Numbered from the stretch's first letter, positions 1,312 to 59,289 are shown. The stretch: 64,000 bases of DNA from Yuukianura sp. NJ FZ-2021 (GCA_046563655.1 CM102286.1:10850001-10914000), one strand, 5' to 3'. Numbers and translations are program-made. The notes: generated by a model not told the origin, from the sequence alone.

Positions 1312-1853
1312 TGAATAGTTTATTACTAGAGAGAGCTCCTTATGATTACAATTGTGAAGCATAAATTTCAGCTGGGTTTAGCAACTCCATTGAGTCTTGA
1401 CCTAAATTTCATTATCTCTCTCCTAGCGGGAGTTCATTCCTTAGCAGATTTTCAATTTTGGGATAGTAGCTCCACACTTTGATTGATTGTAGCACAATAC
1501 AAATTACAGTGAACAGAGGATTGAGTTTGAACGCTCAAGACGATCAGCTGATGTTATCTTGTCAATCAACGGGATATCGGATAACGGGATAATCAACAAC
1601 GATACTCCAACATCCTAAACCGGGGATCAATTAACTATCCAGTTAGTTGACGACAGCAGTAGTGAAAGATCCAGTTAAACCAAATCGATCAATTTGAAAG
1701 TGAAAGGAAAACAACTGTTGAAGACCACGAACCAGTACTCATCGTCACCTCATCACCTCAAAATCAACCTCATCAACTCCAAAGGCATTCATTCTCGTTC
1801 ACTCAATTACGTACTTTCTACATCCTTCCGTCGACTGATTATGTAAAAACGAA

Positions 1854-5987: not shown

Positions 5988-6061
5988 ATTACCTACATCA
6001 ATTTCCCTCTTTTATTTCGAATTTAAATCTAAGATATAAGTAACTCATAATATCTACTTGT

Positions 6062-6110
6062 TGATCAGGGTGTGCCCATATGTCAATAAATAAATATTCA
6101 TTCATTCATT
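6062..6110 (+). terminator. LINE 3' end: GGG-TGTG-CCC stem-loop, AATAAA, (ATTC)n tail
   Basis: tgatcagggtgtgcccatatgtcaataaataaatattcattcattcatt, immediately before the right TSD. Confidence 0.75.
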
Positions 6111-35799: not shown

Positions 35800-36914
35800 T
35801 CATGTAAGTAATTTTGTTCTCATATTATGTCGCATAACAGTTGCCATGAAATAGTACCTAGAAAAGCTGATCAAATGGTGAATTGGAAATTGAGCCTTAA
35901 AAAACAAATATAACACCGGAAAGGGACAAAATCCAAAGAAAATTATAACCACAGTTTCTAATTCACAAACGTTTATAATCAAAGCCGTGATCCCTGTTGG
36001 AAGACGAGGTAGAGCGTTTTTGCGCGTGGTCGGTATACAGGGCAAGTTTGTATATTTGCAGGGAATTAAGGGAAGGTGGCATGTGATTGAGTTCTAATGT
36101 GACATAGGGGAGTTTCTGACGGATTTCAGATGCTGTTTCAATAGTTAACTCACCACAAAATATAGTTTTAAAGAAAGGAAAGCGTCAGCATTCCAGCAAC
36201 GTGGTGGAGTGCGTAATCGGGAAATCCATATCCCATCAGTGTGAAACTTGTCAGTGTCGAGCAATGAACTATTCCGCACATAATGCTTTCGTCTGTTAGG
36301 TGATGAGAAGATAACGACAGCTTAGTCAATTTGGTCAAGCTTCCGAGGAATGGGGAAAATCGTTATATATTGGAACTAGGTGGGGTGTATATATATCGAT
36401 CAATTTCCTGAAGACACGATTCTTCGCAATTCATGTGATAGCGTTGTCTGTAAATGTAGCTTCCGTTGCTATTAGTACTTGTAAGTTGAAGGTACTACGG
36501 GTGTTGCCTTTTTTCGCTTCTGAACCGTAGACCGTACCAGCTGTGGACCACTATTTGTTTAATACGTCCGAATTAGTAGCACAGTGTTTAGGTTCACATT
36601 TAAGCCATATTGAAATTGGTTATATGTCTAGATGGTTTTCCATAAGTAAAATTGGAAACCTCGTTCCATCTACATAGAGCTACCCTAACATCGGCACTAG
36701 CATCTAATTCTGAAATCTCCAAGGGCACATCCCGTAGTGCCCATCCTATTTGTAATATTGACCACATCCTTGGGTCAAGCACGTGACGCTTTGTCATCAA
36801 ATTATCTTCTGGATCGGCTTGGCGGCATCGGATGGCTCCGTCTTCTCCTCTCATGAGCACGGATCCTTCAGCCATCAGCGTCAGTGTAAGTAAAAGCATA
36901 ATGCAGGGAGACAT
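35800..36914 (-). pseudogene. Decayed secreted/membrane glycoprotein, possibly viral-envelope-like
   Basis: Signal peptide MSPCIMLLLTLTLMAEG, scattered Cys across shifted frames, hydrophobic C-terminal VVIIFFGFCPFPVLYLFF. No introns; stops and frameshifts present. Confidence 0.4.
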
Positions 36915-37296: not shown

Positions 37297-37682
37297 AGGA
37301 ACATCTGCAGAGACTTAACCCGACCTTAATTACTGAGCCCTTTGGTCACGGCGGAACCTTCGCTGCCTCCGAACTCAGTGTGATATCCTGTTGTCTAGGC
37401 TGTCCAGCTATCGCCCTACCTAATAGCAAGTTTCGGCTGGTCGCGACTCCAGCGTCCGCAAGTATCCGGATTATCCTTCAACATAGAGCAGTCATGGGGC
37501 ATTGTCGCCACATACCATAACCCCGGTCAAGCTTACACCAGTTGCTAAGGGTCTACCTCCTGACCCCGACGTGTCCCTATAAACGGGAAACTTCAAGTCC
37601 TTACGAGGACTCGGACCTTAAGCTATTGTCCTTGAACAGTACTATATAGTCACGAGGTCTATCCTCTCTCGTGACGAAGTCA
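37297..37682 (-). ncRNA. Conserved ~390-nt structured RNA element, copy 1
   Basis: Colinear homologue at 44723-45112. Many stems are kept in both copies, and G-U pairs form only on the minus strand. Confidence 0.65.
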
Positions 37683-37968
37683 TTTCTAGATCTCGGCGAA
37701 TTGAGTGAAGACTCTCCTCCCTCACTCTAAGCGTTAACCTGTTTTTTATTAATTCAAAATAAAGCAACTACAGTTTTAGTTTCATTAATCTGTGACATAG
37801 GAATTCAATAGTACTGTGATGAAATCTGAAATTAAATCTCCAATTTGGAGCGTTGTGCTGTATATTCAATTTGGGATGCTGCAGATCCCCTTATGAACTC
37901 CACTCTGGATTTGAATTCGTTAACTATTCGCGCCAAAAATTTAGTTCAAACATTTCTGTCATAAAGTT

Positions 37969-39030
37969 CTACGTTACCTCATTCAGGGTAGAAGGAAGGT
38001 GGTTCAGCTCTAAAGTTGCAAAAGGGAGTTGTTTTCGTATTGCCCAAGCAGTGTCTAGTGTTAGTTGTGCGCAAAAGATGGTTTAAAAAAATGAAAGGTT
38101 TAACTTCTGTGTGAGATGGTGAAGTGCACGATCGGAAAAGCCATAACCTGTTAGTGTTAAACTTGTTAGAGTGGTACAAGCAGCGACACCCCACATTATC
38201 GTAGCGTCAGTTAAGAACTTCGAACCCACGGAAAGTTTCGACAACGATTTTAAATTTTCCAGGAATGAAGGTGTGCGAATAAGATCGGACGGATGCGCCG
38301 AGTAAAGTGCTACAACTTTGCCTTGATGTGGCCACCATCCAGTTACAATGCCTGTAATCCCGTCATCTGTAAATTGACCATCAATCGCAACCAATGCCAT
38401 TAAAGACGTTAGATTTTCAAAAATGGAGTGCATCGTCTGATTCGATACAAACTGAATATCCGATTTCTTTCGATGTGGAAAAAGGAACCAAATTTTCTCT
38501 ATAGTGAATGGATCTACGGCAAAGTCAAGGTCAAATTGGTCCACTGTGAATGACGATAAGGAAGGATAGGTCACACCACTTCCAGTATCTATGTCGTCAA
38601 ACATAGGTTGTAATTTTCTAGTTTTAAGGAGCTTCAGAGGGTCGAGTTGCAGCAATTGTAATGGGAAAGCCAGCGAGTCATTAAAGGAAGTGAGGGTTAA
38701 AGAATGGAGACGGGTAAGTTGCAAGAAAACCTGGAAGCGAGAGCAGGTGGTGGGGAAAGGGTGCATAATTTTGGAGGAAATACCTAGCAAATGTGAAATC
38801 GAGCGAATGATATCTAATCGAGGTTTTGACTTTTAGTAAAAACTAGTGTATTTCACAAGAATGTTGATTTAACCCAAGTAAGTCCAGTTGAAGCGTTCCA
38901 ATGGTTATTCCTTAGACGCTAAGTTTAACAGGTTAGCCCATTGGTCGAGCGGGAAATTCAAGTTTTTGAGTTGATAAAGTTTAGGACAGCTCTCATCGCT
39001 TAGAATATGAATAAGCGGTTGAAGCGATGT
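37969..39030 (-). pseudogene. Intronless leucine-rich-repeat (F-box/LRR, RNI-like) gene, copy 1
   Basis: LTSLMALVAIDGQFTDDGITG, LENLKSLSKLSV, LTSLTLTGYGFSD. Premature TAA at 38083-38085 where copy 2 has Lys; homology continues past it. Confidence 0.75.
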
Positions 39031-39049
39031 TTTTCATCAATAGCAATAC

Positions 39050-39350
39050 CGCAGGCACGCCCACATGAGCACGCGAGAACTACGCGATCCATTCCCACAT
39101 GTACATTGTGAATATGGGAAGTCCAAGATTCTTCGGTGGAAAAGCTAAATGGTAAAGCTGAAGAAGTCCCACCAAGCAAAGCTTTTGCACGAAATTCCGT
39201 TTCACAACTCCCACAATACCATTGTGAATTGTCATGGATTCGAGAACAATTAAGATAAGCGGGCAAATCGATATCCAAAAAAGTGGGAATGGCCAAGATT
39301 TCAGGTTCAGCATGATTTTTCGCTAGGAAATCACACCGATAATTAACCAA
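39050..39350 (-). pseudogene. Cys/His zinc-finger-like coding fragment
   Basis: WYCGSC...WTSHIHNVH...ACSCG pattern, abutting the LRR gene. Confidence 0.35.
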
Positions 39351-39399
39351 ATTCTCGTCTGTATCTTCAACATGAATTTCAGCAAGAGTAGTAGGACTT

Positions 39400-41260
39400 T
39401 GGAGTTGACTAGAACGAACATCCCAAAACCTGGGACAAAACCAAAAGAAGCTAATTAGTACAGAAAAATTAAAGAGAATGAGGGAAGGACAAAAACACTG
39501 TCTTAAGAAAATTTCCTTTTTACATCAGAGAAAAGGTTTTGTTGGAAACTTGCGTTCTACGAAAATGGCAAGCCAATGTTCTAAATGGCAGCCAAAGGGA
39601 TTATGTTGAAAATATCATGGCTATGTAAAGCATAAGAAAGTCCAATTAAATGAGAAAAAATAGGGAATCGACTTGCATTTGGTACGATACTGGGATCTAA
39701 TAACCTCTCACGAATCAGATCAGCGAGTTTGCGTAGAAAAATTCCAGCAGAGTTGAGCTGTGCAGGAGAAAGAAAGAGCGATTGAGAAGAACCGAGGAAA
39801 TCGGTCTTTAATTTTTCAGAAATAGAGCTATCGAAACCCGGAAAGAAAAATTTTTGCAATATTTAAACCAAGAAAACATTTTAATATCAGAACAGTTAAA
39901 AACTTACATATTTGGAAGATAACCGACGAATCAGAGATTCACAAGGCAAAAAGAGGTCATAATAATTGAAAACGGGTGCAACCCAGGAAACACCACCAAA
40001 GACCATATTGCATTGAGATTTTAGTTCGATCTGAACTCTCAAAAAATTGTACTCCGGAAGGATAGAAGTCCAAACAACAGGATAGTGTTTAGTAACTGCT
40101 CGATGACGCGCATAATGGTTGGGAGAAGTGAGCAGCCACTCACTTACTTTGAGATAGAAAAAACGAATAAGTACAACTAAAAAACGATATGGTTAAAATT
40201 TCATGGAAGCAAATTAGCAGAAACTTAGAGTTGTCAAAACCAGAAGAAAATCGCACGGAATAAGTGGGTTCGTAGTGAGTTGGGAGAAAACCCAATTAAA
40301 AAATACAACCCCGAAAAATATCTTTTTCCGATCTTTGACACAACTTTGTAGTAAGCAGCCACCGAGCCGTATCAACTAGAGAAAATATAGAAAGTTAAAT
40401 TATATGAGGTTTGTTATTTTGGAAAATAAATAGATAAAATCAAATAAATATTAATCATACCAAATCACGTAGGGGATGAAGTTTGGCCATTAAGTAAGGC
40501 ATATAAATGAATTGAATAATTTCAATCCCATATCTATCAATCCGCAGATTGGTAATTAGTTCAAAATCCCAAGATATCTTGTGCTCGCCACTCTTCCTGG
40601 GACTGGGCGGACTTCGGAGAAACGAGTTTACATGATCGGAGACTTGTTTTTGCGTGACGAGGTCAATATCACGAATCTGAAGTGCCCGTACATTAATGGA
40701 AGGAGACGCGGTGGGTTCTAAAACGGTAAAAATGGTTTTGGAAAAACGTTGATTTGGAATTGAATTGGAAGTGGAAGGTAGAGCAACTGGACAGTCAAAT
40801 TCAAAGGAACCGATAGGTCGGGAAATGTAGTTATCTTGAGTGTCATCATCTTCGTTAAGCAGAGCTTCGGGATAGAACAATTGGTTGTAATCCTATAACC
40901 CAGGTCCAGAACTAGACAAATTTAAAATACAGAGTTAGAGTCTTGCAAAAGGAAAAAGGAGACGGTAAACATTGGAGTTCCAGTTAAAACCTGCTTACAG
41001 GGGAGAGATGGCTATTAAGCACTCATCATTGGAACCCAAGGTTGAATTTGTAGGATAGCAGGCGTTGATAGATTTGAAGAATAAGTAACCGTAAGAGAGG
41101 TTGGAGTAGCAGAAGAACAAAGAAGCGATTCTTCCCAGCGGCGTTTCGGACTTTGGAAGATAGGGCTGGAGAATCCAGGATAGGAAAATTCACCGGTTGA
41201 AGACGAAACGAAGTTAGTCACCGACAGACAGACATAAAGTAGTTTTAAATTCGGAGAAAT
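39400..41260 (-). pseudogene. Decayed multi-exon gene(s) of unknown family
   Basis: Coding-like blocks (e.g. 39581-39859, 40455-40880, 41015-41221) separated by short introns with minus-strand GTAAG donors. No recognisable domain. Confidence 0.3.
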
Positions 41261-41279
41261 CTAAATTCAAAAAATCTGA

Positions 41280-41490
41280 TCTAAATCGGCCTCAACATAA
41301 GGCATCTCGAGCATAATGTAAATTCGTCGGCGAATCTTTCTCAACCTATGTTGTTCAGCTGCAATAGCGAGCTGGTCTTGAAGCTCAAGTTCAGCTAAAT
41401 CGTTCCGAATCCGAGATTCACAAAATGGCGAGACGTGTGAACGTCCGATTTGTTTCTAGCGATTAATTCCACAACGAAACGAAAATTACT
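41280..41490 (-). pseudogene. Small coiled-coil-like gene fragment, copy 1
   Basis: ESRIRNDLAELELQDQLAIAAEQHRLRKIRRRIYIMLEMP; nucleotide homologue at 55467-55690. Confidence 0.55.
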
Positions 41491-43052
41491 TTACTCTATG
41501 CACAGTATAGATATACAGTATATGTAATAGGTAGTAATACGGAGGAGATGGGCATTAGAACCGTAACTTCGGTGTACACGCCGAATCGAAACTAATTTAC
41601 GGAAATCGGCGTAAGGCATGTAGGCTTCAATAAAAGCTAAGTTAATTATGGGATTAGAAACAAAATTAATAAAAGCTAAAACCGAAAGTAGAAACCTGCA
41701 AAGATCAACCGCATAAATTATTCCTAGCATGGAAGCTGAACCTAACTCTCCAAAAATACTAGCCCCAATTCCATTCGGAAATAATTTAGCTTGCTCGTCG
41801 AGGTTCTGCAATGCCTAACTATTATACTTTTCCAAAATAGGAAAATGAAAATATAAATTTTTTAAGTCATTAGGGTACAGATACGAACTAATAATTTTGG
41901 TACGAGCATAAGGCGTCGTGGAAAGAAAATGATTCTCAGCTGGAATCGAAATTTGAATATCAGGAATTCTTGGAAGTTTTCCTAGGAAAAACAAATTTTC
42001 CGTTTCAGTGATTGTTACTGAAAATGGGAGGTTTGAAAGAATTAGCTTGTTTAAATAACCGTTAAAATTTTCAGCCTTAAATGAAGAAGTAGAGGCACGC
42101 CGTTTGACGGAAGTAGATTCAGATATGACTCTAAAATAGTAAAAGTTGGTTACTAAACTTAAAGAGTGTCTAGTAAAATATGCAAAACAGGTTAAACTTA
42201 CGTGTTTTGAGGCCAACAAAGGATGGATTCTCAAGCAAAGCGATAGGTTCGGTCACAACGGGAGACTTCGTTCGCATTTTTGAAATTTTGAGTGTCCTAA
42301 CTTGAACTCTTCAGAAAAGATTTAATAGAATATGGAGCGATTAGATTACAGCGTTATTGGAAAACATCATGTTGGCTAAAAATATGATACGGTAGTTAAG
42401 AAATTGAATTGTTTTAGAAAAAATTGAAAGCGTGAAAAATCCATAATTTTGACACCCCTACTATCGAAATAAAGAAAAAACCACTTAAGCCTAGTGACTA
42501 ATTTCAGTTGATGAATTCGATTTACTTTAACTACGGTTGAGATTTAATTAAAAAAAAATTTTTTTTCAGTATTTTCAATAACATTGGGTATATGTGCCTT
42601 TTTTGCGGAATGCGAGATTGTGGAAAATTGGAGACTCAGTTAGTCCGACTCCAGTACGAAGGTCAGGAAGAAGTAACGTCCGAAGGTTACTTAAGAATAA
42701 AAATAAAAATGTTTAAAAATTATAAGAAGTACAATTGAGCATATTTTAGGATTTATGACTCTTTAAAAAAAATAATAATAATAAAACTAAGGTTGGAAAA
42801 AAACATACAAGGGAGAAAAGTGAGGTTACGAGCACAAAGTGAAAGCCTGATGTTGAGACGTACGCAGTGTAAACTAGTGAACAAAGTGGATAATGGGACT
42901 CTTTGATTAGTTGAAATACAACACAAGCCTTTTAAAGAATGGGATGAGGTTTAAATGCAAATATTTTGCTGCAAAATATTATCGTCTAGAACCATTTTAT
43001 GTTTACATAAAAATTTGCTAAATGCATACATAGCTAAAGAGAAGATACAAAC

Positions 43053-44320
43053 CTTAAATAGAATGGATAATATTCGCGTTCCTTGACTACATCGGGTGGA
43101 GGAATAGTACCCAAGAAGCCACATCTGCATTGGGTCAACCTGGCATCGTAGACAGTTTTCATGTCGGATAAGGCGACAACATTAAGCGTCTCATCTGAAA
43201 TAAAAAGACAAAGAGAATTTATTTAGATAAGAAGGAAGTAAGCGAGTGTAATAGAATTCAGAGAAAACTTACTAAGGGAATATTCCATATTAAATACCAT
43301 ATGCATACATCCAGGTGAAGTGACAACCATGTCACCTTTATGCTGAACATATACGGTGTATTTAATACCCCACTTATGGAGCGTCCGAGGATGGATCATG
43401 AAACCTTTGGTTTTCAACAAGGCGTCACAATTTTCATCAGTAATCTCTTTGATCTTCTCCACCAGTTTTTTAGAATTTTCAAGGTTGAAAAGGATCCAAA
43501 ATTTCGAATAGCCATCCACCATATATTTGATGCTGAAACAACAGCAATCCTCCACATGGGCTCCAGTACCACGGCAACGTTCACTGATGTACACGGCTGG
43601 ACACGTTACACCCATAATTCCAATCTATAAATTACGAAAGTACCGTTTTTAGGAAAACAGATTTATATTAGAAGGAATGAAAAACATAAAGTGAAAAGAG
43701 ATTGATATTTGGAATAAAATTAAAAATCGAAAATAAAATGGAACTTACACCAACGTGCCCAGAAAGGCGATTTAATCCCCGATCCATTTTCCAGAAGTAT
43801 AAAGGATCTCGGAAACAATTTAAGTCAATCCCATGATCCGGAGAAGACGCCACAGTCCGGAAATTCATTTCCTGATAAAACCCTCGGGAACCAACAGTTT
43901 CTTTAAAGAATCGATCGATTCCAGCTCGATCCCAGATATAATCAGTTTCACGAAAACAATATAGAGAATAAAGCAAAAAATAAATTAAAAACCGATCGTT
44001 TTACAATACCTTGTCTGTTTGATTATAAGGCCAGTTCGAGTATCACGGGTATCACAAACACGGTAGCGACTCATACCGTTGATCCCTTTTAGGTTGATTT
44101 TGGTGTAAAACTCCTCCAAATTATAAATCGTAGAATCGCCAACCGGTATGGCTAAAAAGGAATCCAATTTTTTTTGGTCGACTTTGATGTTCGGGTTATT
44201 CCGGACCCGAATAACAAAAGCACCAACGCTGTCAATTTGTTTGATGTGCCGTTCTCGAATATACGGAATATAATAGCCAGTAGCTACGAGCCGAATTCCA
44301 GTGATTTCATGGATAAACAT
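43053..44320 (-). pseudogene. KDM4/JMJD2-like JmjN-JmjC histone demethylase gene (divergent; one acceptor appears damaged)
   Basis: Exons ~44320-44010, ~43950-43749, 43624-43273, 43194-43053. GVTCPAVY..GAHVEDCCCFSIKY..SKFW..LHKWGI..QHKGDMVVTSPGCMHMVFN..NETLN..QCRC parallels KDM4 GVNTPYLY..WHTEDMDLYSINY..PKSW..QEAGEFMITFPYGYHAGFN..AESTN..CxC. Confidence 0.8.
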
Positions 44321-44722
44321 TGTGAGTTGAGCATGGGCTGGTATTTTAGGTGTTGCTAGAGTTAGGATGGTGTCGTTATGTTGCCAAGTGATTGCTGACG
44401 ATGTACAAAGATAATCAGCCGTAGGTCGTATGATAATATTTGCACAGATATAAGTCGAGTGTTGTACGTTTCGATAGAAATGGGATGGGAAAGTTTACTA
44501 ATTTACCCAAAGTCCAACTATTAGTGTCAATGTGATTAGTTGAAGACACTGAAACAAGACTGTGTACTTCACTAATCCGCAAAAGAAACAGGAGAAAGTT
44601 TTGGTAATCGGAGACACTAGAAACCATGTTGAAGTTAAGTCAAAACAGTAGAATTGTATGTGAAAGCGGCGAAAAAGTGAGGAAGAAGTGGTACCTTAGT
44701 CCCTTCACACCGCTATTCTTTT

Positions 44723-45112
44723 AGGAACATCTACGGAGACTTGGCCTATCCTCTTCTTAACTATGCTGAGCTCGTCGGTCCAGGCGGAACCTTCACCACC
44801 TCAGAGCTCACTGTGGTATCCTGTCTTCAGAATTTCAGCTATTGTCCTACCTAACTACAAACTTCTGCTGGTTGACTCCAGCGTCCATAAGCGTTCGGAT
44901 TGTCCAACCGATTAGAGCAGTTATGGGGCATTTCTAGCCACATGCCATAACCCCGGTCAAAACATACACCAGTTGCTAAGGGTCTACCACATTACCCCGA
45001 CTTGTCCCCTACAGACGGGATCGATCAAGTCCTTACATGGACTCGGACCTCCAGCTGTCTTTCTTGAACACTACTCATATTCACAGGGTCCACCCTTCCC
45101 CGTGAAGAAGTC
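44723..45112 (-). ncRNA. Conserved ~390-nt structured RNA element, copy 2
   Basis: Homologous to 37297-37682, with compensatory and consistent substitutions in stems. Confidence 0.65.
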
Positions 45113-47084
45113 AATCTTAAATTATTGCTATTTCTCAGCAAGAGCTTTCCCTTGCTTCTTTTGAACTTTTGAACTTCGGTTCAGATTCTAGTCACTTTAA
45201 TCAAGTTGGAAATCTCGTCCAACAACTCTATTTTCTCTATGTTCAGTCTTTGGGTTAAATATTTGAGAATGAGATCATGTGTAACTTCCTAAGACAATAG
45301 GTCAATAGGTGCCATCGCATAGTTATAGGTCAGCAATGGCTGTTAAGGAACATTACGTTGTATTTCTGAAAAGAGTCCTTGCTTTGATAACTTTGATCAA
45401 ATTCGTTAATGTTTTTAGAATTTCCTGGAGCGTTTCTCAAAGTTTAATTCATCTTGATTAATTTAACGTTAATTATTTTGCGTTAGTGTTTTTCGTTAAG
45501 GTTTTGATTAATTTTCTAATTTTATTTGAAAGTGAAATAAGAAATGAAACTTTTTGGTTTTATAGATAGGAGTAATGTGTTAAATATGAGATGAGTTGAA
45601 ATGAGAATTAAGTAAACTGATCGTTATTGCTCTGATTAAACAGAGTAAAAATTTCAATTGAGAATATGCGAACATACCCCTTAGCACTCTACTGTGAATT
45701 TAGGACCTTATCCCTCCTGTACTCTACTTATGAGTTTTTCAACATTTGGAGAATTTTAAATTTTCGCGCCATTTCAACTTGTCGGATTTTCTGTTAAAAA
45801 TGTATCCTACATATTGTCCTGATCTCTGTGACCTACCTATTGACCTTTCTAGAAGCCTTAAGGGCTGAACGGAAGGATCACAGTAGAACCTCCATTGAAA
45901 CGGGGTGAAATCTTAGCGCTAATTAAAATCTCTATTTTAACATTTCTGCTCAATTGTTCTCTGAAAACAATTGGGCTACGCTGATGCTCGTAGCTTCTGC
46001 AGGTCTAATACCCGTCACCCCCTCGTGACCTAACCCTTTGACCTTTCCGGGCCCTTAAGACACTACCTAATCTAAATACCTAGGATGAGATAGGGCCGAA
46101 CCCAACTGATCCACCTGCCCCTACTCGACCATCCTGACGTCATATGGAAATTGGTCCCATCAGTCCCACCTACCAGCCTAACTACCCACGTTACTGTTGG
46201 GATTGAAAAGGACTAACTCTAGCTATTATGACAATAAAAGAGTATGACTGTTTAATTACCTCCTTCAGCTGCAGTTGAATTCGCAACGCCTAGGTTCAGA
46301 GCAGAAAGTGTAGCCAACAGCGGAAGGATGGATTTTGTAGAATTTATTTTTCCCGAAAGAATACCCTTGAAATGATCCCGTTGAGAGCTTATAAGAAAAG
46401 CTAATTTGAAAATGACTTAACCTCAAGTTCTTAGCTAGAAAGCGAATTTAAGATTGACTTACTTCTAACAGAGTTTTCACTAGTATTTGTAACCTAGATC
46501 TTGACCCACGCTATCCTCAAGGTTTGACCACCCTTGGCAACACCCTTGGGACTCAAGTCCGTGATGAGACGTTAATGACCAGAATTTATGGTCAAATTTC
46601 AGTCATTAATGTTTGATATCAGGCAAAGTTGCGATCGTATGCAAATTGATAACTTGTTAGTTTGTATTAGAATCATTCGTTCACAGGCTGATTCCCCATG
46701 TTCAACAAGTGTAGAACTTGTTGAGCAAGTTACTTTGTTACGTCAGCCTTTTTCCTATCTGTAAGTTGCAAAGATCATTTCCCATAAATATTTGCAAAAG
46801 TGACTTGGTCTGATGTTGACTCATCCCGAAATTCACGAAATTCGGGATAATTCAAAATCCGACGTTACACTCATGCTGAAAGATTTTGCGTTCCGTTTTT
46901 AAAAACGATAAAATGCGCGTTTTGTGCTTAGATTGTCAAGACGTGCATGATTGTGCCATAAATGGACGCATACATCATTAATATGCATCATAATCACGAA
47001 ATACCTGGTCCAATCAAAACTAGCAACGTTCCCGCCACAGCTAAATACAACTGCGTTGTGAAACTATCCTGATTAACATGGATG

Positions 47085-50010
47085 TTAGAATTTGTAAGTA
47101 GTGAACTTCCGTGGTTTAGTACCAAGGAATCGGTTTTTTAGAGTAAGATTTGGTTGATTAGAGGAATCCGTGCTACTGATATGCTGGACTCCACCAATGT
47201 AAATGAATTCAGTAATGTTGTTCAAATTTTGACGTGGTCTACTGGACAATGGTTGTTTATATGGGTGGTACCCATGTGATTGAAGAAAAGAGAAGTGAGA
47301 TAACCTGCCATGAGCCTCTGAGTAGTTGAGGACTGATTGAACTTGTACAGAATTAATAGCAACTGCGGATATGCTATGGGTTTGATCATGTGCGTGCGAA
47401 CACAAAGCGTTTTCATCTTCGATAAATTTACCAAGAGTAGTTGTAGTACAAATCATGTTACAAGCGTCGGTTAAATCTGCAGTTTTGAATGTCGAATTGC
47501 TAATGATCGGAAACGCATAAGAATGGTCACCGGAATGTGATGTCAAAGCTGTGCACCATCCCGTTTCATCTTCCAAAGAATATCCTAACTGTCTCCCATC
47601 CATGTATTCCTTCACCATTGGAAAATATGCGATCAATTCATGCCAGTCTTCTAATTGATGCAAGGGGAGTCGGAAAGTAATATGCTTGTCCAATTCAAGT
47701 TCTGAGAAGTATTCTTTAATATGATCAAACTGTATTCTGTAGAAAGCTTTAAATGCCAACGACGTAGTTTTAACTGTCCCCATGTACGTCTGCGTCCAAC
47801 CTGACTGACGAGGACTGGCTCTTGGCCGTTTTTCGAAATCTGAAATTCTGAAACCCGGAAGTGGTTTCTCATTGTCCAAAAACACTTTTGGCACTATTCC
47901 CGTTTCACAACGCGAAAAAAAAAGAATTCGACCCGGGGTGGGGTTGAACCCATATCGGGCGAAACGGCGAAAGTGACCTTTTTCGGGGTGGGGGCCCTAT
48001 CCTCTGGACCAAAACCTAGTTAGCTGTTCCCGTTGGTAAAAAAGTAATTATTGATGCATACCTGCAGGGAAAAATGGAAGGTACAAGAAAAACGTTTTTT
48101 TTTCGTAAAACCGACGTAGTTCCTCTCATTATTAAAGTGAAAGTCAAAGTATTTCACAAATATGGAGTCGTCAGAGGTTAATCCTATTACAATCGCAAGA
48201 AAATTTGTTCGGATTGTAGAAAAGGAGTTCAAAGGACATGATATTCCCAATCATAGTGAAAGTACAGAACTATTTGCAAGAAAACTGTTTAAATTGTTCT
48301 TGCAAATGCTGGATGATTTCGTTTTAGCCGAAGAAGAAGACTTGACGATTCATGGTACATCAAGACATCAGAATCTGGAATTTAAACTTTTTACTCCAAA
48401 AACTTGTACACACTGTACATTTTTCATATTATTTCACATAAGGTGAAAGTGTCTGACAACAATTTAAAATTAAACTTTCTAGACATCAATGAACGGGACG
48501 AATCGTTTGCTATAGAGCAAGAGATGGAAGTCAACGAAATTCCACTTGAAGAGAGTACGAATTGTCAAATTCGCGGATTCTCACCCAAAGTATAGCCTTT
48601 CGACGCTTCAACATAATGGATGTGCTTCGCTTTCTTCGAAATCAAAACTTGCAATTTGGAGAAATCATAGTTTTTAACCCTATGATACGCTACTCTTTTG
48701 TAGCTGCAGGATTTCTGGAATCCAGCGACAAGAAGAATTTTTTTTTCAGTTGAGCAGATTTGCTTTCACTGGAAGAAAGGAGACTCACCGATTTGCAAAA
48801 AATGTCAAAAAGAAAGTCGTTTCATCCGATGCAGTCATTGTAATAAGATACTTTGTTTTTCATGTTTCTTTTTTGAATATCACATTACAGAGTGCGAATA
48901 TTCTAAAAACATGTTAACTTTCAAAAATTGAAAAAAATTTAAAATTGTTACGATTTTAGACGAAAGTAAGTCACTTTGTTTTTTTTTAACTGGGATATTA
49001 AATTAGATAAACCTTGAGTATTTGCGAAAAACGGGGGAAAGATCGTAATTTGTTTGTTGTAGAATGCTCCTCTTAAGAGCAATTAGTGTCGTTGTTAATT
49101 TTAATCGGTTAACTTTTAATTTGAAAAAAATTTCTTTGACTTTCACTTTCCCTCTTCCTGTGCGCATGAAAAACTAATTTTCTAGGGACCAGCCCTGTGA
49201 TCTTTGTTTTGGTCCAGGGGATAGAGTCCCCACCCCGAAAAAGGTCACTTTCGCCGTTTCGCCCGACAGGTGTTCAATCCCACCCCGGGTCGAATTCTTT
49301 TTTTTTCGCGTTGTGAAACGGGAATGGTGCCAAAAGTGTTTTTGAACAATGAGAAACCACTTCCGTGTTTCAGAATTTCAGATTTCGAAAAACGGCCAAG
49401 AGCCAGTCCTCGTGAGTATAGAAATACATGCAATCTAGGAATGGGTTGTACCAAAATGTATCGCAATCCAAAGAGACAAAAAAGGAGAGGCCACTATTAC
49501 TTCGGAGGTCAAACTTGGCTAACATCATCGAATTGGTCAGTATCGATCAGAGCTGTAAAAGCGATAAGGTTGAGTGCGATAAAAATGGTGACGATTACAT
49601 CTTCCCGGTGCTGCATGCCGATATAACTGATACCTCGGTCTGTCAGAGTACTAAGCTGTTCTCGGAGAATGGACGACAACGGAACTATGCGGTTTGTTTG
49701 AAACGTGGAGTTTGCTTCTGGCATATAAAAATGATTCCGTAATTGTAGAGAAGCCAACACCTCTGGTAGAGATATGAGTTTCGGATGTTGGAAAAACTAA
49801 TTATAAAAATCCTGTTCCTTGAACTGTTGGAATTTCAATGTTGCGTTAACTTTGAACTGTTGCGGAATGCGTTTATCATAGATGTCGGCTAAGAGGAGGA
49901 CTGGTGGAAATTTGACCGCTGATTCTCGTATTCTATTAGTTCCTTCCTGCCAAAGAGGGCTCCCCCATCCGTCGGATATCTCCACGAGCTCGATTGCTTC
50001 TGCCATTCTG
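47085..50010 (-). pseudogene. Unknown-family intronless gene P2, split by a DNA transposon
   Basis: Removing 47809-49412 and one TGA restores FWYNPFLDCMYFYT-QSGWTQTYMGTVKTTSLAFKAFY, colinear with the paralogue at 50480-51860. Confidence 0.7.
47809..49412 (+). mobile_element. Tc4/Tc5-like DNA transposon, internally deleted
   Basis: 207-bp TIRs (47809-48015 and 49206-49412) starting CGAGGACTGG. TGA TSD (47806-47808, 49413-49415) in a C-TGA-G site. Internal transposase N-terminus (VNPITIARKFV) is joined to a Cys-rich C-terminus (CKKC..RCSHC..LCFSCF) with the DDE core deleted. Confidence 0.9.
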
Positions 50011-50479: not shown

Positions 50480-51860
50480 CAGAGAATCATATATAAAAAG
50501 TGAAAAATAACGTATCAGCTATCGACGTTTAAGTATAGATTTAGTACCTCCGCGTCTGTCGGTGCAGAGATTATGACTGGATACATTCAAAATACATTGT
50601 TTCAATACGTTCAGGTAAAAGTTGTCAAGGTCGTCTGAACAGCTGTTGAATAGGTAGTTGGAAACCGTCATTAGCTAGTTTAGACATATCAATTGCCCCA
50701 CCACTGTATTCAGAGAAAGATTGGATAGCCTGAAGTTGGTCATAGTTAATTCGTAATTGGCATATTCTGTTAAGTGCGCGGTTGGGGGTAAAGATACCCA
50801 TGTGATCTAAATTGTGCACCGTTCCGTGACTTTGGGAGCATCCTGCCCCGTGTTCTTCAATATATTTGCCAAACCGTGTTGTAGTACAAATCGGATGACC
50901 AGTTTAAAAGCGATCGGCTGTTGCAAACATAGGATTTGTGGGAACGGGAAAGGCGTACGTGTGATCCCCGATTTGCCCTTGGAGTGGTGTACACCAACCA
51001 GTGTAATCATCGAATGCTTTAGGTTTGTGTTTTAGTCTTCTATGCTCGCGAATAAGGGGATGATATGCCATAACTTCAAGGCAAAACCTCAATTTTTGAG
51101 CAGGTAAGAGGAATGCAAACTGTTTGGTGTGTTCAAGGAAATAGAAGTGTTCATAAATGTCGTTAAATTGTTGGCTGTAGAACGCTTTAAATGGTAAACT
51201 GTCCGGCCTAACATTTCGCATGTTTAGTCGTAGAGGAACGCTATTTTGTTGCGGATACATATTATCCGTAAATGGGTTATACCAGAATAATCGAGTGGGA
51301 AGTAAGAGATAACAGCAACCAACTTGAGCTCTTAAGTCAATCCAGACCTGATTAACTCTCTCTGGCAAAGAGATATTCGAACAGCTGACCCTAGCCATCT
51401 GATGGTTTGTAATGACAATGGCCGATTGGTGTCCAGAAAACTTCTTGAAACCGATATATAGTAAATTAGGGTTATCGAATAATGATTGGAGTTGTGAAAG
51501 TAGAAGAGGTGGAATGATGATGAGTTTCCCTAATTTAAATGTAGGGGTTCCGAGTCCCTCCATGAAGTGATTACAAAGTTGAATACAGGCCAAGACTTCT
51601 CCAAGCACTAGCATCGTGGTATTATGCAGAAACCATGTAAAAAACTCCATTATTTTGAGCGGCTGCGGGGTGATCGTGGAGCTCAGCTCGACCGTTGGAC
51701 AGCGTTGATCAATGGGGCCATATCCAGCGCGTCCAGTTCCTACAGCTTCGAGAACATCTGTTACATCCCTTGATCGATCCCATTGGTTACGAGGAATATC
51801 GGACGTCCAAAGAATGGGGAACTGCCATGTACTATTTGAATTACGATTGTCGTTAACTCG
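50480..51860 (-). pseudogene. Unknown-family intronless gene P1 (tandem paralogue of P2)
   Basis: EVLACIQLCNHF, FWYNPF, FKAFY, DYTGWCT, GDHTYAFP and a frameshifted tail INYDQLQAIQSFSE, each matched in P2. Confidence 0.7.
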
Positions 51861-52723
51861 GAATATGTATTAAGTGATCTGATGGGGAAATTCTGAGTGT
51901 ACGTCTCCTAACGCAATGAAGATGAAATTAGGTTGGAGGCGGGAAAGTTGAAATGAATTACTCAATTACACAGTTAGGTGTTAGCACCGGAAGTTTATGG
52001 TGGCTTAAACCTGAACCTTTGGAAAGAGGTTGTCTCCTTGGGGCCATAGGAAAATGGAGCACCAGGTGGAGTGAATCAAAGATAACTGAAATGAATCGGG
52101 TGAGTAATGATTTTGCGAGATGAGAGACTCGACTGGATTCACGACCGATGGCTCTATTCCATGCCGTTTAAGCCTGATTCACACGAGATTGTGATGCCTA
52201 AACGTGTCATGTTCATACGTAGGCAGGAGAACAACACGTGACCTTCGGATGAAAGTAATCGTTATCCAATCTAATCTAATCCAGAATGCCACCAACCAAC
52301 AAACAGAAATCTAAGTGGAGACTGACCAAAGTTTATACTAAATGAAAGGAGAAACAAAAATATTGTGACATGTTGCTTTGCGCAACTTGTTATGACGTAA
52401 ATTGGGTAATCGCAATGGACTGCGTAGTTTTGAATAGGAATTGAAACTACACTCGCTATTTACAAAAACCAAATTTAGAAGTACATTTTCCATTACGCGT
52501 AACTGTGAGAAACGAAAAACCGGAGACAATAGTATCTCCAAAAAAAATATGGTTGCAACAGAGAAGATTCTGTTTTTGTTGGGTTCCACCGTAACGTTGT
52601 AACTTTGTAAGAACATGAGTGGATTTCGATGCTAATATTTTGTGTTGAAAGTTTCTTTACAACGGTTGTCAAAAAATGAATTATAAGAAAAATGTACAAA
52701 TATCCCTCCAGATTTGGTAAGGT

Positions 52724-54147
52724 TTAAAGTGGTGGTTTTGGGTGTAAGCAGTTTGAGATAAGGATAACAATAGTATTACACAGTATTTGAAGATGGGTTT
52801 GTAAGTGTGATTTGAAAAAAAAAACACCATGGCTGTTTTTCCGCCAATATAAAAAAATGGTGGAGGTGGGGATGGGACGTTTTAAAGGTCGGGTTTTAGT
52901 TTGTATCATGGCCAGGCGGTAAATGTCGACACTGTTCAGGGCAGGAGGAAGGTGGTTCAGATCTACAGTAGCACAAGGGAGTTGTTTCTGGATTGCCCGA
53001 CCTGTGCCTAGTGTTAGTTGGCCACAAGAGATAGTCTTGAAAAAGGAAAGATTCAACTTCTGGGTGAGGTGATAATGTGCGCGATCAGAAAATCCGTAAC
53101 CTGTAAGGGTTAAACTAGTTAGAGTATGACAAGCAGCGACACCCCACGTTATACTAGCATCAGTGAAGAATTTGGATCCTTGTTTGGATAAGGAAAGTTT
53201 GGATAAGGATGTTAAATTTCCCAAAAATGGCAATGTGCGAATAAAATCCACCGGACGATTTGAGTAAATCGCGTCAACCTTTCGTGCATGTGACCAGCAA
53301 CCAGTTAGGACGCCTGTAATCCCTTCATCCGTAAATTGGCCATCAATCGCTACAAGTTCTGTTAAAGATGTTAAGTTTTGGAAAATGGAGTGTATCGCCG
53401 GAGTCGATAAAAACTTAATATCGAATTTCTTCAATTGTGGAAAAAGAGAGCCAATTTTCTCTATAGTAAAAGGATGGACGGCAAAATCAGGGTCAAACTG
53501 CTCTACCGTGAAGGAGGATAACGGAGGATACGTTACCCCACTTCCCGTATCTATATCCTCTAACATGGGTTCTAAGTTTCCAGTTTTAAGGAGGGTAAGA
53601 GTATGGAGTCGCGGCAATTGTAAGACAAAAGTCAGTGAGTACTTAAAGGAAGTGAGGGTTAAAGAGGTCAGGTGTATTAGTTGTGAGAAACCTTGGAAGC
53701 GGGAGCAGGGTGGAAGTGAATAATTTTGTTAGAAATGATTAGCAAATATAAAGTCGAGTGACAGATATCTCATTGTGTTTTTAACTAGTAACAGAAATTC
53801 TTGCAATTCCCGAGAATGTTGATGTAAACCGATAGTCCATCTAAAGCGTTCTAATGGGTACCCTTTAGAGGCTAAGCCCGGCAGATTTGTCCATTGTTCG
53901 AGGGGGAAATCCAAATGTTTGAGATGGGGAAGTGAAGGACTGGTGTCGCCCGTGAGGATATAAATGAAGGGTTGAAGATTACATGGCCGTTTATGGTCCA
54001 TGTTATGTGTGATGTATTCAGACGGAGCGATTTGATATGGATATGGATAAAGCGGCTAAACAAGTCCATGCAGATGAGAATGAAGCCAATCTTTTCTTTT
54101 TTGGCAGACTTTTTATCCAACTGCAAAAGATCAACTCCGAACGTCAT
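52724..54147 (-). pseudogene. Intronless LRR gene, copy 2
   Basis: Aligns with 37969-39030 (DIDTGSGVTYP, AIDGQFTDEGITG, WGVAAC, LTQKLNLSFF). Broken into three ORFs. Confidence 0.75.
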
Positions 54148-55466
54148 ATAAGGAAAAAACGTTAATACTGGCCTGGTCCTTGGCTTTCTTTGCGGACTAT
54201 GTTAAGAATATGCAGGCACTCCGGACAAAGCTTGCTTGACCTTCTCTTTGTCTAAAAAGCCTGACGACTCTAAGAATGACGGAAAACCAGAAAAGCTTCC
54301 AGCTTGCTATTCAAATAGGCTGACTTTATTTGTCTTTCACACATGCTAAGAACCAACAAAAGAAATTACATAAGACAGTGTATGACGGCGGCTGCCGGTT
54401 GAATATGACTTTTCACCAAATTTATTTCCAGACAACCGAATTCTCGAGAACTATTTAAGCTTAAGACTCAGGGGTAAGTTGGTATCCATAGCGTCTTCTT
54501 CGCTCCAGTCCATTGACTTTACCAAGAAGCACGGATTTTCAAAGCACTGTGACCCGGTTCGTCCACAGCCCAAGATACACGGTTCAGAAAGTTCAAAGTG
54601 ACCCTTCATGTCCTGCATGAACTCTTCCAAGTCTCCTTCCCGAACATAGGCCGAGTGATCTGCTGGCAGTTCATTTATTGTCTTGTCCTTGTTAATTTCT
54701 GCATCGTAGACATAACAGTCGCGGTAACCATTACGGTCCCAGCAGCGTGTTTCAGAACAGCACTGCCAAACTGACGTATGATAGGATCCACTTCGGCAAG
54801 TTCGTACAAAAGTTTAGCCAATGGCTTTTCCTGTATATTTGGCCAATCAAGCTACAAAGAGAAATTTAAGGTCAAAGTTCAAAAACTGGCAAATTCTAAA
54901 ATTTTACACGCCAGAGGTGCAGAATTCGTCGTCGGCATTTTGAAATCGCTGCGCTTACTATGATCACCGTTCCAAGTTTTTACTGCTTTATATAGCCTAT
55001 CGAAATAAAGTACAAACGTTTTTGAAATACTCTTGGCTAGTAAGCTTCAGTTGAAAGGTCAATGACTCCACACGGCATATGCGCCATAGCTTCTTCTCTC
55101 AAACGAGTCATTCACACGGAGAGGAAGGGGTATAAATTGACTGTCTTCCCTTGCATTCAGTCTCACTTTGCTCACCCACAACTCAAGCCAGAGACAAATC
55201 TCAAGAATGATAAAACAATGGAAGGAAGCTCAAAGATATCTACGTAGTTTGGACTATCCTAATAAAAGAAAGTTGACATACGATTTTGAACTGAAGAAAT
55301 AAAAGAAAACTGTACAGAAACCGAAGAATTTGAAATAATTTAATCAGACATTCTCAACAGCCGAATTTAAACCTAAGTTGCAGAGGGACAGACAAAAAGG
55401 TAGAACACATTTATGAAAAAGCGTTTAAATTCGAAAAAGTGTTCTAAATTTGGAATATCTCATACA

Positions 55467-55690
55467 AGTCGGCTTCATAAGCATAATTTAAGGCATTTCT
55501 AGCATAATATAAATTTGTCGGCGAATCTCTCTCAATCTATGCTGTTCAGCAGCAACAACAAGCTGCTCTTGAAGTTCAAGTTTAGCCAAGTCTCTTCAAA
55601 TCCGAGATTCAAAAAATTCCGAGATGTGAAGAGACATGTGCGGAGTCCGTCTTATTTCTACCAATAAACTCCACAACAGAGCGAAAATTA
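55467..55690 (-). pseudogene. Small coiled-coil-like gene fragment, copy 2
   Basis: DLAKLELQEQLVVAAEQHRLREIRRQIYIMLEMP; homologous to 41280-41490. Confidence 0.55.
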
Positions 55691-56823
55691 TATAACTCTA
55701 AGTGATAGAGAGTGTAATAGGGAGTGATTTAAAGAAGACAGGCATTAGACCCATAACTGCGGCGCCGAATAGAAAGCAGTTTGCGAAAATCTTCTAAAGG
55801 CATATATAGGCTTATATAGGCAACCAAGTGGGAGGATAGTCAACCTGGGGGGAGATTTTGTTTTAGGTGTGGACATCCTCTCATCCGCAGGTGTCGCACA
55901 TTGAAAGAAAACACAAGGCCAAAACTGTTGTGGCGTCATTCGTTTATTGCGCTGTTCACCCTACTCAGTGCACCCCATCGTAATTCTGGTTTCTGGTGGG
56001 GTGATTTCCAGGTCAGGAATCACCCCTGATAAGAGGGTCCATACTTAAGAGAAAGTTCCCCAGACGCTAGAGTCGATTACGACTGACTCACTCTTCTCCC
56101 CGATTCCCCCCTCAGATAGCCTCTCTTGTGTCCCGTTTGTGGTCTGTGAGCTGAGTGAACGTGGGAATCCAGGCTCACAATCTTCCCCCACCAAAGTCAA
56201 AAGTCGCGCAAAATGATGAGCTATGCACTGTATATAGAGTTCCTATACGTCAACGCCTTTTTCCATGAGTTTTGTAATTTTTTCAATGTTCGCTTAACCT
56301 AATTGCTGTTATCTAAACTAGTGTAAGTATAGCTCCATTGTGTTAGTGATTAAATGAAGAAAGTTCAGAGTGAAGACAAAATTGATAGAGTAGATTGGAA
56401 ATTACGTTTTGTCGAAGTAGAAAGTTAAGTTTGTATACTATTCAAGAACTCATTATAATCATTAAATCTAGGTGCTGTCTACCAAATATTGTATTGAATT
56501 GTGTTGTCAGCCATTCTCTATGGGTCACACATATCAATCTCAACACCCAGGAGTGTTATATTTCCAGCAATTTCAGTGGTGACGTCCAATAATTTGTGGA
56601 ATTCAGTATCCAGTGGTATGAAGTCAGATGTCTTACGATCTCAATCTTGCCGAAGTTATCACTATGCGTACATAATTCAACTTTTTCCCAAGTCGATGTG
56701 GTCTAAATAAAGTAATGATTGCAATTCCAAGATGTGGGCGTTTGAAAACCTCTGAAAAGCCTTTGAAAATTGATTACATTGGTTGTCTGGGATGTAAAAT
56801 TTATATCGATCCCCCCATACTAA

Positions 56824-59289
56824 CGAGGGATGTTTTTTCACGTGATCTGAAAATTTTGAATTCTAAAGTTATAGTCGAGTTCCTGATGTAAGCACAAATA
56901 TTTTGGTGGTAGTTTTAGTTGCGAATGCAAAAAAAAATTCCACCCCAGATTTGAACCCGCCTTCGCCGCCTCAAAGGATAAAAACTGACCAGACGCTTTC
57001 TCCCCCGCCACGCAAGAGAAATCATAGACACCTGGCTGAATATTCTCCTTTTTCTCGTTGATGCAAAAAAGATTCTTTCACGGCTGAAAATTATTTTCAA
57101 AAAATTCCTTTCTTTTCTCAAAAAATGGACGTAAATCCAATCGAAATTGCGAAAAAGTATGTCAAAATTGTTGAGTATGAGTTCGAGAAGTATAATTTAA
57201 CCACTATGTGTGAAAGTACAGACGCTTTCTTACACGCAACATCAGGTAAACTTCAGGCGTTCAGGCTGAGGAGTGATTATAAATGTTATTAGGTATTAGC
57301 TACTCCAATACACTTTCACCAAAAAGTTTTGCAAATTTAATTTCAGTAAAACTTTTAAATTACTTTTGACACTCTGCCAAGTGGTACATAAAAAAAAACA
57401 AGAAAAACATAAAGTTTTAAAACAACGGCTACAACGAATGAACCGGTTTTCCTTTGCGCAAATTTCACAAATTGTAGAATTTTCCTTTTCCCAGTGAAAG
57501 CAAACTGTTCAACTGATAAAAGTTCCTCCTTGTCATCTTCTTCCACAAATCCTGCTGAAAAAAAGCAGTACCGAATCATGGCGTTGAATACTGGAGCTGA
57601 TAATTGGTGGTGAAGTAGGCTTTGCATTTTTATAATGCCGTTTCTTGTTGTTATGCGGTCTTGTGGATGGATTCCATTTGGTTCCACAAATATGTCACAG
57701 TGGTTGATCATCGCTCGAGAGAGAATTTTCAACTGACGATGGAAATATGTATCAAGGGGTTGGCAAGTTGAGGTATATTTTTCAGGTATGACGAGTACCT
57801 CTGCTTTCACTGTACTTTCTCCAAAAACTCCATCATACAGGTTTAAATTTTTTTGACCTTTCCAAGAATCAATAAGGTAGAGAAAGTCTTCTTTCATCTC
57901 TGTAGCTACCACTTTCTCGTTGAAGTATTTTACCAAACTGGAGTTGAGTTTTCCCGAATGACTGCAGGTCAAGGTCACGTTTGGTGCTGGAAAAAGTGAA
58001 TTTTCTACTATTGGTCCAATCCTTCCGCTGTTTTCTTGGAGACAAATGAACACATTCCCAACAATATTTCCTTGAGCAGAAATAACATACTGAACAGTAT
58101 ATGTATGTGTCACTAGATTTTTTGGAGAAAGCACGCAGCCTTTCACGCTCTTTTCTCCTATGAAGTTTAAGGTCCTTGCAGAGTAAATTTCGTAGGCAAA
58201 TCCGCATTGGTCTGTATTGATGATTTGGGCTGGTGTGTAATTTTTCATTTTCTTCTTCACTTTCACCCGAAACGACTCTGCTTTCTACATGAGATCCTCT
58301 GAATTTGAAACTTCGTGACGGCTTAGGAGAAGGTTAATTCGACGGCTTTTAATTCGATGTTTTGATTTAAAATTTTCAGCCCAACTTCTACTTCTACAAC
58401 TAAAAAAATTTGCTTGAATTTCGGTTGCCTTTTGAATTCCCCACTGTTGTAGATTTTTTGTGCGGAGGATTTTGCCTGAGTCACGTGAAGCCACAAAATT
58501 TTGAAGCACAAACTTGTTAATTTGGCGTCTCTTTTCTCCAAAAGGGTAGACGAGATTTGGATGGAAGTGAGGCACATCCTTTACGTTTTAGTGTAGGTAG
58601 GCTGTAGTTAGGATGTAAGTCAACAAAATCCAATATTCTTTTCTTTTCATGTAAGGGGATTTCGTTGGCCTCAACACTTTCATCTTCAGATTCAAAATTT
58701 TCATTCACTGTGTCTAAAAAATGTTTAAAAACCAAGTTTTGGTTACATTTTCTTTGTAGTAACATTTTAGAAGGGACTATTGAAAGAAACTTTTGACTTT
58801 CACTTACCTGGACCTATCAAGTCCTCTTCTTCTCCAAAAACAAAGTCATCAAGGAGATGCAGGAAGTTGAGTACAACTTGTCAGCAAAAGCGTCTGTAGT
58901 TTCACACATAGTGGTTAAATTATACTTCCCGAACTCATGCTCAACAATTTAAACAAACTTTTTCGCAATTTCGATTGGATTTACGTCCATTTTTTGAAAA
59001 AAACGGAGTTTTTGAAATTAGTGTTCACCCGTGAAAAAAACGTTTTTGTGTCGACCACAAGAAGGAGAATATTCAGCCAGGTGTCCATGATTTCTCTTGC
59101 GTGGCGGGGGAGAAAGCGTCTGGTCAGTTTTTGTCCTTTGAGGCGGGAAAGGCGGGTTCAAATCTGGGGTGGAATTTTTTTTTTGCATTCGCAACTAAAA
59201 CTACCACCAAAATATTTGTGCTTACATCAGGAACTCGACTATAACTTTAGAATTCAAAATTTTCAGGTCACGTGAAAAAACATCCCTCG
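56824..59289 (-). mobile_element. Tc4/Tc5-like (pogo-related DDD) DNA transposon
   Basis: ~404-bp TIRs (56824-57228 and 58887-59289) starting CGAGGGATG. TAA TSD (56821-56823, 59290-59292) in a C-TAA-G site. Confidence 0.93.
57370..58990 (-). pseudogene. Tc5-like transposase (CENP-B-type HTH plus DDE_1), disrupted
   Basis: ATG at 58990, intron 58807-58714. Catalytic motifs NTDQCG / IDSWKG / CQPLD with 38 residues between D2 and D3. Stop at 58285-58287 plus frameshifts. Confidence 0.88.

Follow-up and report, generated by a model that had tools for sequence, protein, structure and literature searches.

A structured ~390-nt non-coding repeat with unrelated flanks in Yuukianura sp. NJ FZ-2021, tentatively read as a non-autonomous mobile element

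Introduction

What places the same stretch of a few hundred bases, sharply bounded at both ends, in two unrelated sequence contexts of one genomic region, and why should its helices outlast a quarter of its letters? The question arises in a window of 64,000 nt, the whole stretch of DNA analyzed here, from Yuukianura sp. NJ FZ-2021 (GCA_046563655.1 CM102286.1:10850001-10914000). A first-pass annotation of this window, made from the sequence alone, described a structured RNA of about 390 nt that is present twice on the minus strand (copies A and B), ends at an AUG, and might serve as an internal ribosome entry site (IRES)-like leader. The pair is best explained as two old, diverged members of a dispersed ~390-nt non-coding repeat family in an under-sampled eukaryote. 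That the unit is a non-autonomous mobile repeat spreading through a structured RNA is the reading to which we lean, tentatively.

Two non-coding copies with sharp borders

Copies A and B were recovered by blastn as a direct repeat pair on the minus strand with 75.8% identity over 396 columns (E ~1e-70), in agreement with the first-pass annotation as to number, position, and strand (Table 1). As that annotation also held, similarity stops right after YAG ATG TTC CT in both copies. When flanks of A and B were taken at lengths of 60, 150, and 400 nt on both sides, their local alignments were at the level of shuffled sequence (161-413 of 500 shuffles were as good); the borders are sharp and the flanks unrelated. 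The genes beyond the flanks differ too, a decayed KDM4-like JmjC gene following B and an orphan open reading frame (ORF) with a leucine-rich repeat (LRR) fragment following A, and the description of a discrete, portable unit is borne out. The 5′ border may nevertheless lie near 37690 in A and 45120 in B, because the ~8 nt preceding the TGACTTC start are weakly alike in A, B, and one further copy at a loose contig end.

The unit starts with TGACTTC and finishes with CCT; ...AGATGTTCCT closes both copies, and the only exact occurrences of AGATGTTCC in the window are the two unit ends. Its GC content is 0.51 in A and 0.49 in B, exceeding that of the flanks (0.35-0.46) and of the window (0.39). 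AATAAA lies ~65 nt before A. A third copy was found in the 64-kb window neither by blastn nor by nhmmer --max, nor by a covariance model of a 133-nt core run with filters off, for which the next best match scored 11 bits (E 0.39).

The repeat is non-coding. The two copies differ by 56 transitions, 33 transversions, and seven indels of 1, 1, 1, 1, 2, 2, and 7 bases, and no codon periodicity was detected in the 7 ungapped blocks between them (phase chi-square p 0.18-0.96). Coding on either strand was rejected on these grounds, the indels not falling in threes and the substitutions having no three-base phase; a codon-type substitution pattern, which the first-pass annotation had named as evidence against its proposal, was absent.

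Further variants in contigs of the source sample

Contigs from three DNA runs of one sample show that A and B are not alone. Those fitting an 8.6-kb stretch around the copies at 80% likeness number 257, 176, and 61 in the three runs, and of these only 51, 37, and 0 are at least 99% alike, so the whole neighborhood is repetitive. At least 8-9 distinct further variants of the unit occur in the sample, some of them in other contexts, and their existence moved the odds toward a repeat family. Alternative letters were carried in one run (X1) by 8 contigs at 37571 and by 9 at 44812. Word depth reached 150-300 for single variant contigs as against 20-24 for perfect-match contigs, summed depth being no measure of copy number.

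Several contigs bear on how the unit is joined to its surroundings. One matches as far as 37684, that is, to the same 5′ end, and then enters a different flank. Another carries the downstream flank of A, 13 other letters, and then a B-like body (joint from 37316 to 44757). Two contig records have the unit followed by the downstream block of A at other spacings, and one contig joins 44488 to 45327, skipping 838 nt that include B.

A fold shared by the two copies

The RNAalifold consensus of A and B, read on the minus strand, comprises 97 pairs in 22 helices with an energy of -94.3 and a structure conservation index (SCI) of 0.764. It opens with a 5′ hairpin, continues into a central domain, which holds short hairpins and is shut by long-range pairs, and ends with a 3′ hairpin. 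All the helices named in the first-pass annotation are present in it. Seventy-nine of the 97 pairs are invariant, 15 differ on one side with pairing kept (for the most part G-C or A-U replaced by G-U), and in 3 both sides differ. Differing columns account for 21 of the 194 paired positions and for 83 of the 202 unpaired ones, a contrast that is to some extent inherent, since the alignment itself was used to choose the fold, and null tests were therefore made.

Three kinds of null were used: 1) column contents were shuffled within the identical, different, and gap classes (energy -69.9±5.3, SCI 0.58, z -4.6, 0 of 100 as good); 2) one copy was kept and the other's differences were scattered over same-base positions (-72.4±5.8 and -74.4±5.1, SCI 0.59-0.60, z -3.8 and -3.9, 0 of 100 each); and 3) one copy was kept and the difference pattern was rotated with its clustering preserved (-68.8±5.4 and -68.3±6.2, SCI 0.56-0.57, z -4.8 and -4.2, 0 of 90 each). 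The observed SCI was never reached. On the plus strand the same tests gave a weaker signal (z -2.9/-2.6 and -2.35) which, together with the 15-16 G-U pairs per copy in the consensus, favors the minus strand, as the first-pass annotation had claimed. Two in-window paralog pairs of like length and identity served as controls (41244-41627 with 55424-55813, and 37982-38371 with 52935-53324) and gave no fold signal on either strand (SCI 0.39-0.46, z +0.4 to +1.8); ordinary duplicates in the window do not trigger the test. Among the folds of single sequences, only the centroid of A does better than chance, with 11 pairs broken in the other copy against 19.5 expected (7 of 2000). A pair-shuffle control, powerless with two sequences, gave 59 of 500. 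A conserved fold is well supported, its details less so.

The sample variants were placed on the same model. All seven of the best-supported variant letters in the unit sit in unpaired columns, which adds little because four of them are also differences between A and B. A 7-nt deletion in a contig of depth 259 takes off the tip of the hairpin at columns 171-204; judging from the letters that remain, a short direct repeat could allow the five outer pairs of this hairpin to re-form.

Table 1. Positions of the two copies, their predicted structural parts, and their terminal ATGs (window coordinates, or columns of the A/B alignment).
Feature	Position	Strand	Basis or remark
Copy A	37297..37682	minus	blastn, two alignments, nhmmer
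Copy B	44723..45113	minus	blastn, two alignments, nhmmer
5′ hairpin of A	37641..37680	minus	helix 2 at 37649-37675; 2 of 3 two-sided compensatory changes
5′ hairpin of B	45073..45111	minus	helix 2 at 45080-45106
Central multi-helix domain of A	37389..37638	minus	long-range closing pairs, invariant short hairpins, 24-nt block identical in A and B
Central multi-helix domain of B	44822..45070	minus	RNAalifold consensus
3′ hairpin of A	37334..37377	minus	U-G twice, where B has C-G and U-A
3′ hairpin of B	44767..44810	minus	RNAalifold consensus
5′ hairpin, pair changes	columns 16-23/35-42		G-C to U-A, A-U to G-C, G-C to G-U
3′ hairpin, pair changes	columns 317-323/354-360		two U-G become C-G and U-A
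Helix with one pair change	columns 171-178/197-204		U-G becomes U-A
Invariant helices			AGTCC/GGACT, TCCC/GGGA, GGGT/ACCC, CTGGT/ACCGG, GCTGG/CCAGC
Terminal ATG of A	37302..37304	minus	frame open for 25 codons only
Terminal ATG of B	44728..44730	minus	frame open for 5 codons only

The AUG at the end of the unit

The IRES-like leader for downstream cistrons that the first-pass annotation proposed is unsupported, because the terminal AUG soon meets a stop in both copies. As the DNA stands, no cistron begins at the terminal ATG of either copy, and the next sizeable ORFs begin ~390-410 nt beyond. The unit shares with viral and cellular IRESs a structured RNA, a length of a few hundred bases, and an AUG at the end; it differs from them in having no cistron after the AUG, no match to an Rfam IRES family, and several variants in different contexts. 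A complete spliceosomal intron or introner was also considered on account of the YAG near the 3′ end, and was rejected since the unit begins with TGACTTC and has no GT at its 5′ end.

Comparison with known families

Rfam 15 gave no match at the gathering score over the whole window, and at E up to 10 only unrelated weak ones appeared for an 8.8-kb stretch and for each copy alone, which accords with the first-pass annotation, in which the unit was not recognized as a known Rfam family. ARAGORN found 0 tRNA or tmRNA genes. An 18-mer from the most conserved block occurs at 3, 2, and 6 loci in genome, viral, and metagenome contigs, all attributable to chance (they match only 18-19 query bases, or 26 with mismatches), a search by which diverged relatives would be missed; as an exact word, it was absent from the literature text searched.

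Retrozymes and viroid-like repeats are non-coding and highly structured, and the unit shares this with them along with ends that can pair; it differs in that neither the hammerhead nor any other self-cleaving ribozyme family matched at E up to 10, and on direct reading no hammerhead core is formed in or beside it. The conserved regions of group I introns, group II introns, and RNase P/MRP-like RNAs have no counterpart in the unit on direct reading, and Rfam is silent on them as well. Helitron ends were sought and no TC...CTRR between A and T was present. Guide-like pairing between the upstream flank and a 4-nt variable patch (columns 99-102) amounted to 4-5 bp, out of register between A and B and at chance level.

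Short interspersed nuclear elements (SINEs) are among the closest systems: like them, the unit is a few hundred bases long, non-coding, dispersed, and present in several variants per genome, its fold would matter for propagation, and it sits in a transposon-rich region with an intact long interspersed nuclear element (LINE). The many dispersed copies in different contexts that mark a SINE were found here as the variant contigs with different flanks in the one sample. The unit nevertheless differs from SINEs: it has neither a tRNA, 7SL, or 5S head nor an A-rich or microsatellite tail, target-site duplication is absent, and its 3′ end does not resemble that of the LINE. SIRE of Trypanosoma cruzi offers a second likeness, one of description: it is portrayed as a dispersed, non-coding repeat of ~435 bp without a poly-A tail that corresponds to the terminal repeats of VIPER, a tyrosine-recombinase retroelement (PMC6681497). 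The present unit is likewise short, dispersed, non-coding, and free of a poly-A tail; unlike SIRE, it has no recombinase or reverse transcriptase partner bearing the unit in the window, and its host has fragmented, intron- or pseudogene-like ORFs unlike those of a trypanosomatid.

A non-autonomous mobile repeat

The reading that we tentatively favor is that the unit is a non-autonomous mobile repeat. It would be read from the minus strand into an RNA predicted to fold as a 5′ hairpin, a large multi-helix center, and a 3′ hairpin, and the family would multiply through this structured RNA, SINE-like or SIRE-like in behavior and neither by ancestry. The fold would be recognized by machinery supplied in trans, either a reverse transcriptase or a ribonucleoprotein (RNP), and such recognition could explain why helices are common to lineages between which one position in four differs. 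Transcription of the unit, an RNA intermediate, and mobilization in trans are what we infer from the discrete non-coding unit, its unrelated flanks, its variants in different contexts, and its fold-sparing variation. The intact LINE ORF2 in this transposon-rich window is a possible source of reverse transcriptase. The nearness of both copies to gene-like ORFs downstream would be incidental or, at most, a matter of a donated promoter or leader. Because the tests of membership in SINE and long terminal repeat (LTR) families both failed, the unit is classed as working like such families and not as belonging to either.

Several observations weigh against this reading. No target-site duplication, A-rich or simple-repeat tail, or terminal inverted repeats were seen at A or B on direct reading, though copies of this age may have lost target-site duplications that they once had. 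Rfam at E up to 10 and ARAGORN detected no tRNA-, 7SL-, or 5S-like head, the 3′ end of the unit has no similarity to that of the LINE in the window, and no autonomous partner was identified, a relaxed Pfam scan of neighboring ORFs having returned no unit-linked transposase, recombinase, or reverse transcriptase. A and B are oriented alike, each a short way upstream of gene-like ORFs, and the downstream block of A recurs with other copies; the unit may for this reason travel in larger duplicated segments and not insert alone. The contigs are probably the assembly's own data and hence not independent of it.

The fold evidence has points of the same kind. It was drawn from two full sequences only, A and B. 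Redrawing letters at the same differing columns gave results nearly as good (z -1.1 and -1.4; 16 of 80 and 8 of 80 as good), so the signal lies in the placement of changes and not in compensatory letters. The minimum free energy (MFE) of the single sequences is not lower than that of dinucleotide shuffles (z -0.14 and -0.94), and the pairs that make up each MFE fold fail in the other copy at roughly the chance rate (29 broken against 31 expected, and 29 against 34). The first-pass claim of covariation consequently survives in part: pairs do vary compatibly with the fold, but strict covariation is thin because only 3 of the 97 pairs vary on both sides, and the redrawn letters are not significantly worse.

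If the unit is such a mobile repeat, it would represent a new type of non-autonomous element, one that has no tRNA, 7SL, or 5S head, no A-tail, no TG..CA ends, and no duplications, and it would provide a natural case for asking which RNA shape a mobilizing enzyme reads. In gene and non-coding RNA (ncRNA) annotation of this genome the repeat should be masked or modeled.

Alternative explanations

The main rival is that A and B are variant genes or orphan copies of a multi-copy gene family for an undescribed structured ncRNA, an RNP scaffold or a ribozyme, with RNA ends approximately at the unit ends. We consider this possible but doubtful. It accounts as well as a mobile repeat does for the fold constraint over the whole length and for the high GC content relative to flanks and window, and it suits the asymmetry between strands, a 5-bp pairing able to join the two ends of the unit, and the several near-identical variants in the sample, as in snRNA-like or 5S-like families. 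GGTCCGAGTCC, an invariant block in both copies, is B-box-like, agreeing at 10 of 11 places with a B-box consensus of RNA polymerase III. The same gene family accounts more poorly for variants in several different contexts and for copies lying among pseudogenes and transposons; no family in Rfam fits it, even at an E of up to 10, shuffled sequences reach an MFE just as low, and there is neither a clear upstream promoter nor, on direct reading, a T-run terminator at the unit end, the one run of four T in B being internal. Were it an RNA gene family, its product would join the large structured RNAs that have no known relative, which are rare in eukaryotes. The broader proposition that the unit represents an undescribed class of large structured RNA, a multi-copy or mobile RNP scaffold or ribozyme whose whole 390-nt architecture, paired ends included, is selected and which has no Rfam relative, strikes us as rather unlikely.

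Alternatively, and as a broader version of the first-pass IRES-like proposal, the unit could be a cis-acting leader or promoter module of expanded gene families, transcribed as the 5′ part of an mRNA whose translation or stability the fold controls. The strand of both copies is that of the genes: the first ORFs of the KDM4-like gene come 230-400 nt after B, and 316 nt after A comes an ORF at 36968-36600, itself followed by the LRR fragment (36410-36038); the contigs that pair the unit with the downstream block of A at different spacing would also fit. Direct reading finds several internal ATGs in the unit, which would be obstacles to a scanning leader of the sort present in leaders that bear an IRES. 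Yet the terminal ATG opens only the short frames already described, the downstream genes are decayed by frameshifts and in-frame stops, the LRR paralog at 52727-53977 is not followed by a copy of the unit, and similarity ends sharply with no continuation into a shared first exon. We judge such a module unlikely.

Two further readings fit worst. According to the first, A and B bound a single old element of 7.8 kb (37297-45113) as its LTR-like terminal repeats, or else are solo terminal repeats from a family of that kind. Direct repeats of ~390 nt lying 7.4 kb apart, a TG start, a purine-rich tract ~30-35 nt upstream of each copy, and a unit that draws more variant contigs than most of the interior (depth not being copy number) would suit it, and precedent exists in the terminal repeats of VIPER, to which SIRE corresponds (PMC6681497). 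The marks of an LTR, a plain segment of which the first-pass annotation had itself listed as contrary evidence, are however wanting: the unit lacks a CA end, target-site duplication is absent, no tRNA-type primer-binding site (no TGG-type) follows B, and neither purine-rich tract adjoins its repeat. After the YAG, A and B continue with an identical 9 nt, though only one of the two copies could be the 5′ repeat, and between the copies Pfam recognizes JmjC only, with no gag, pol, or recombinase in an interior of KDM4-like and LRR pseudogene sequence. Structure-sparing variation over the whole unit is unexpected in a repeat decaying after insertion, and a terminal-repeat origin is very unlikely. 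Least probable of all, and scarcely credible to us, is a plain decaying duplicate without RNA-level function whose fold signal is a by-product of block-wise conservation, since the non-significant letter choice, the mere three two-sided changes, the near-zero MFE z, and the non-significant single-sequence MFE test that would suit it stand against three nulls, one of them keeping the clustering, that never match the observed consensus energy, two silent control pairs, and strands that behave differently.

The surrounding region

Apart from that of the LINE, the window yielded no long ORF with any simple recoding, which points to eukaryotic, repeat-rich DNA. The LINE (1839-6110, plus strand) is apparently intact, with a coiled-coil ORF1 (1839-2657), a 1108-aa ORF2 (2661-5984) containing endonuclease and RVT_1 domains, and a short ATTC-type repeat near 6095-6110 at its 3′ end. 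The best relative of ORF2 among 5.8 billion proteins is 31% identical, so the lineage appears to be poorly sampled. A pogo-like DNA transposon occupies 56820-59293, its DDE_1 ORF (57358-58284, minus strand) lying between inverted repeats of ~400 nt (56820-57228 and 58887-59293) that are 89-95% complementary. A Ty3-type gag fragment at 62230-62748 (minus strand; Retrotrans_gag, Ty3_capsid) has no pol or LTR recognized nearby.

A second family of orphan ORFs, in addition to the LRR-like one described below, lies at 47088-47996 and 50577-51869 on the minus strand and at 49228-49416 on the plus strand, with 37-44% identity between the two long copies and no Pfam match. The 63 N-terminal residues of this family occur a second time, inverted, as part of a 287-nt inverted repeat (47804-48090 and 49131-49417).

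The decayed KDM4/JMJD2-type JmjC gene that follows B (43223-43624, minus strand, within 39000-44500) has overlapping frames with in-frame stops, and parts of the 7-kb stretch containing it recur in the sample contigs at 80-95% likeness. After it on the minus strand comes an orphan LRR-like ORF (38832-38083) with a weak LRR match. Paralogous orphan ORFs at 37975-39024, 52727-53977, and 36038-36410, all on the minus strand, share a cysteine-type LRR-like periodicity with 70% and ~50% protein identity, and the LRR region paralog at 52727-53977 is 75% identical. For the 334-aa LRR-like ORF, a search of the 5.8-billion-protein set at lengths of 183-585 aa revealed no relative.

Two further repeat pieces were noticed. 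The ~400-nt repeat at 41244-41627 and 55424-55813 is 71% identical and present in many sample contigs, with contig ends piling up at 41217 and 41262, a pattern suggestive of a further repeat family nested within the JmjC-LRR unit. Immediately upstream of A, a 257-nt piece (37726-37982) is one that recurs alone in a 4.5-kb sample contig with 13 differences, and because it starts exactly where the two LRR units cease to be homologous, copy A appears to sit at a junction of several repeat pieces.

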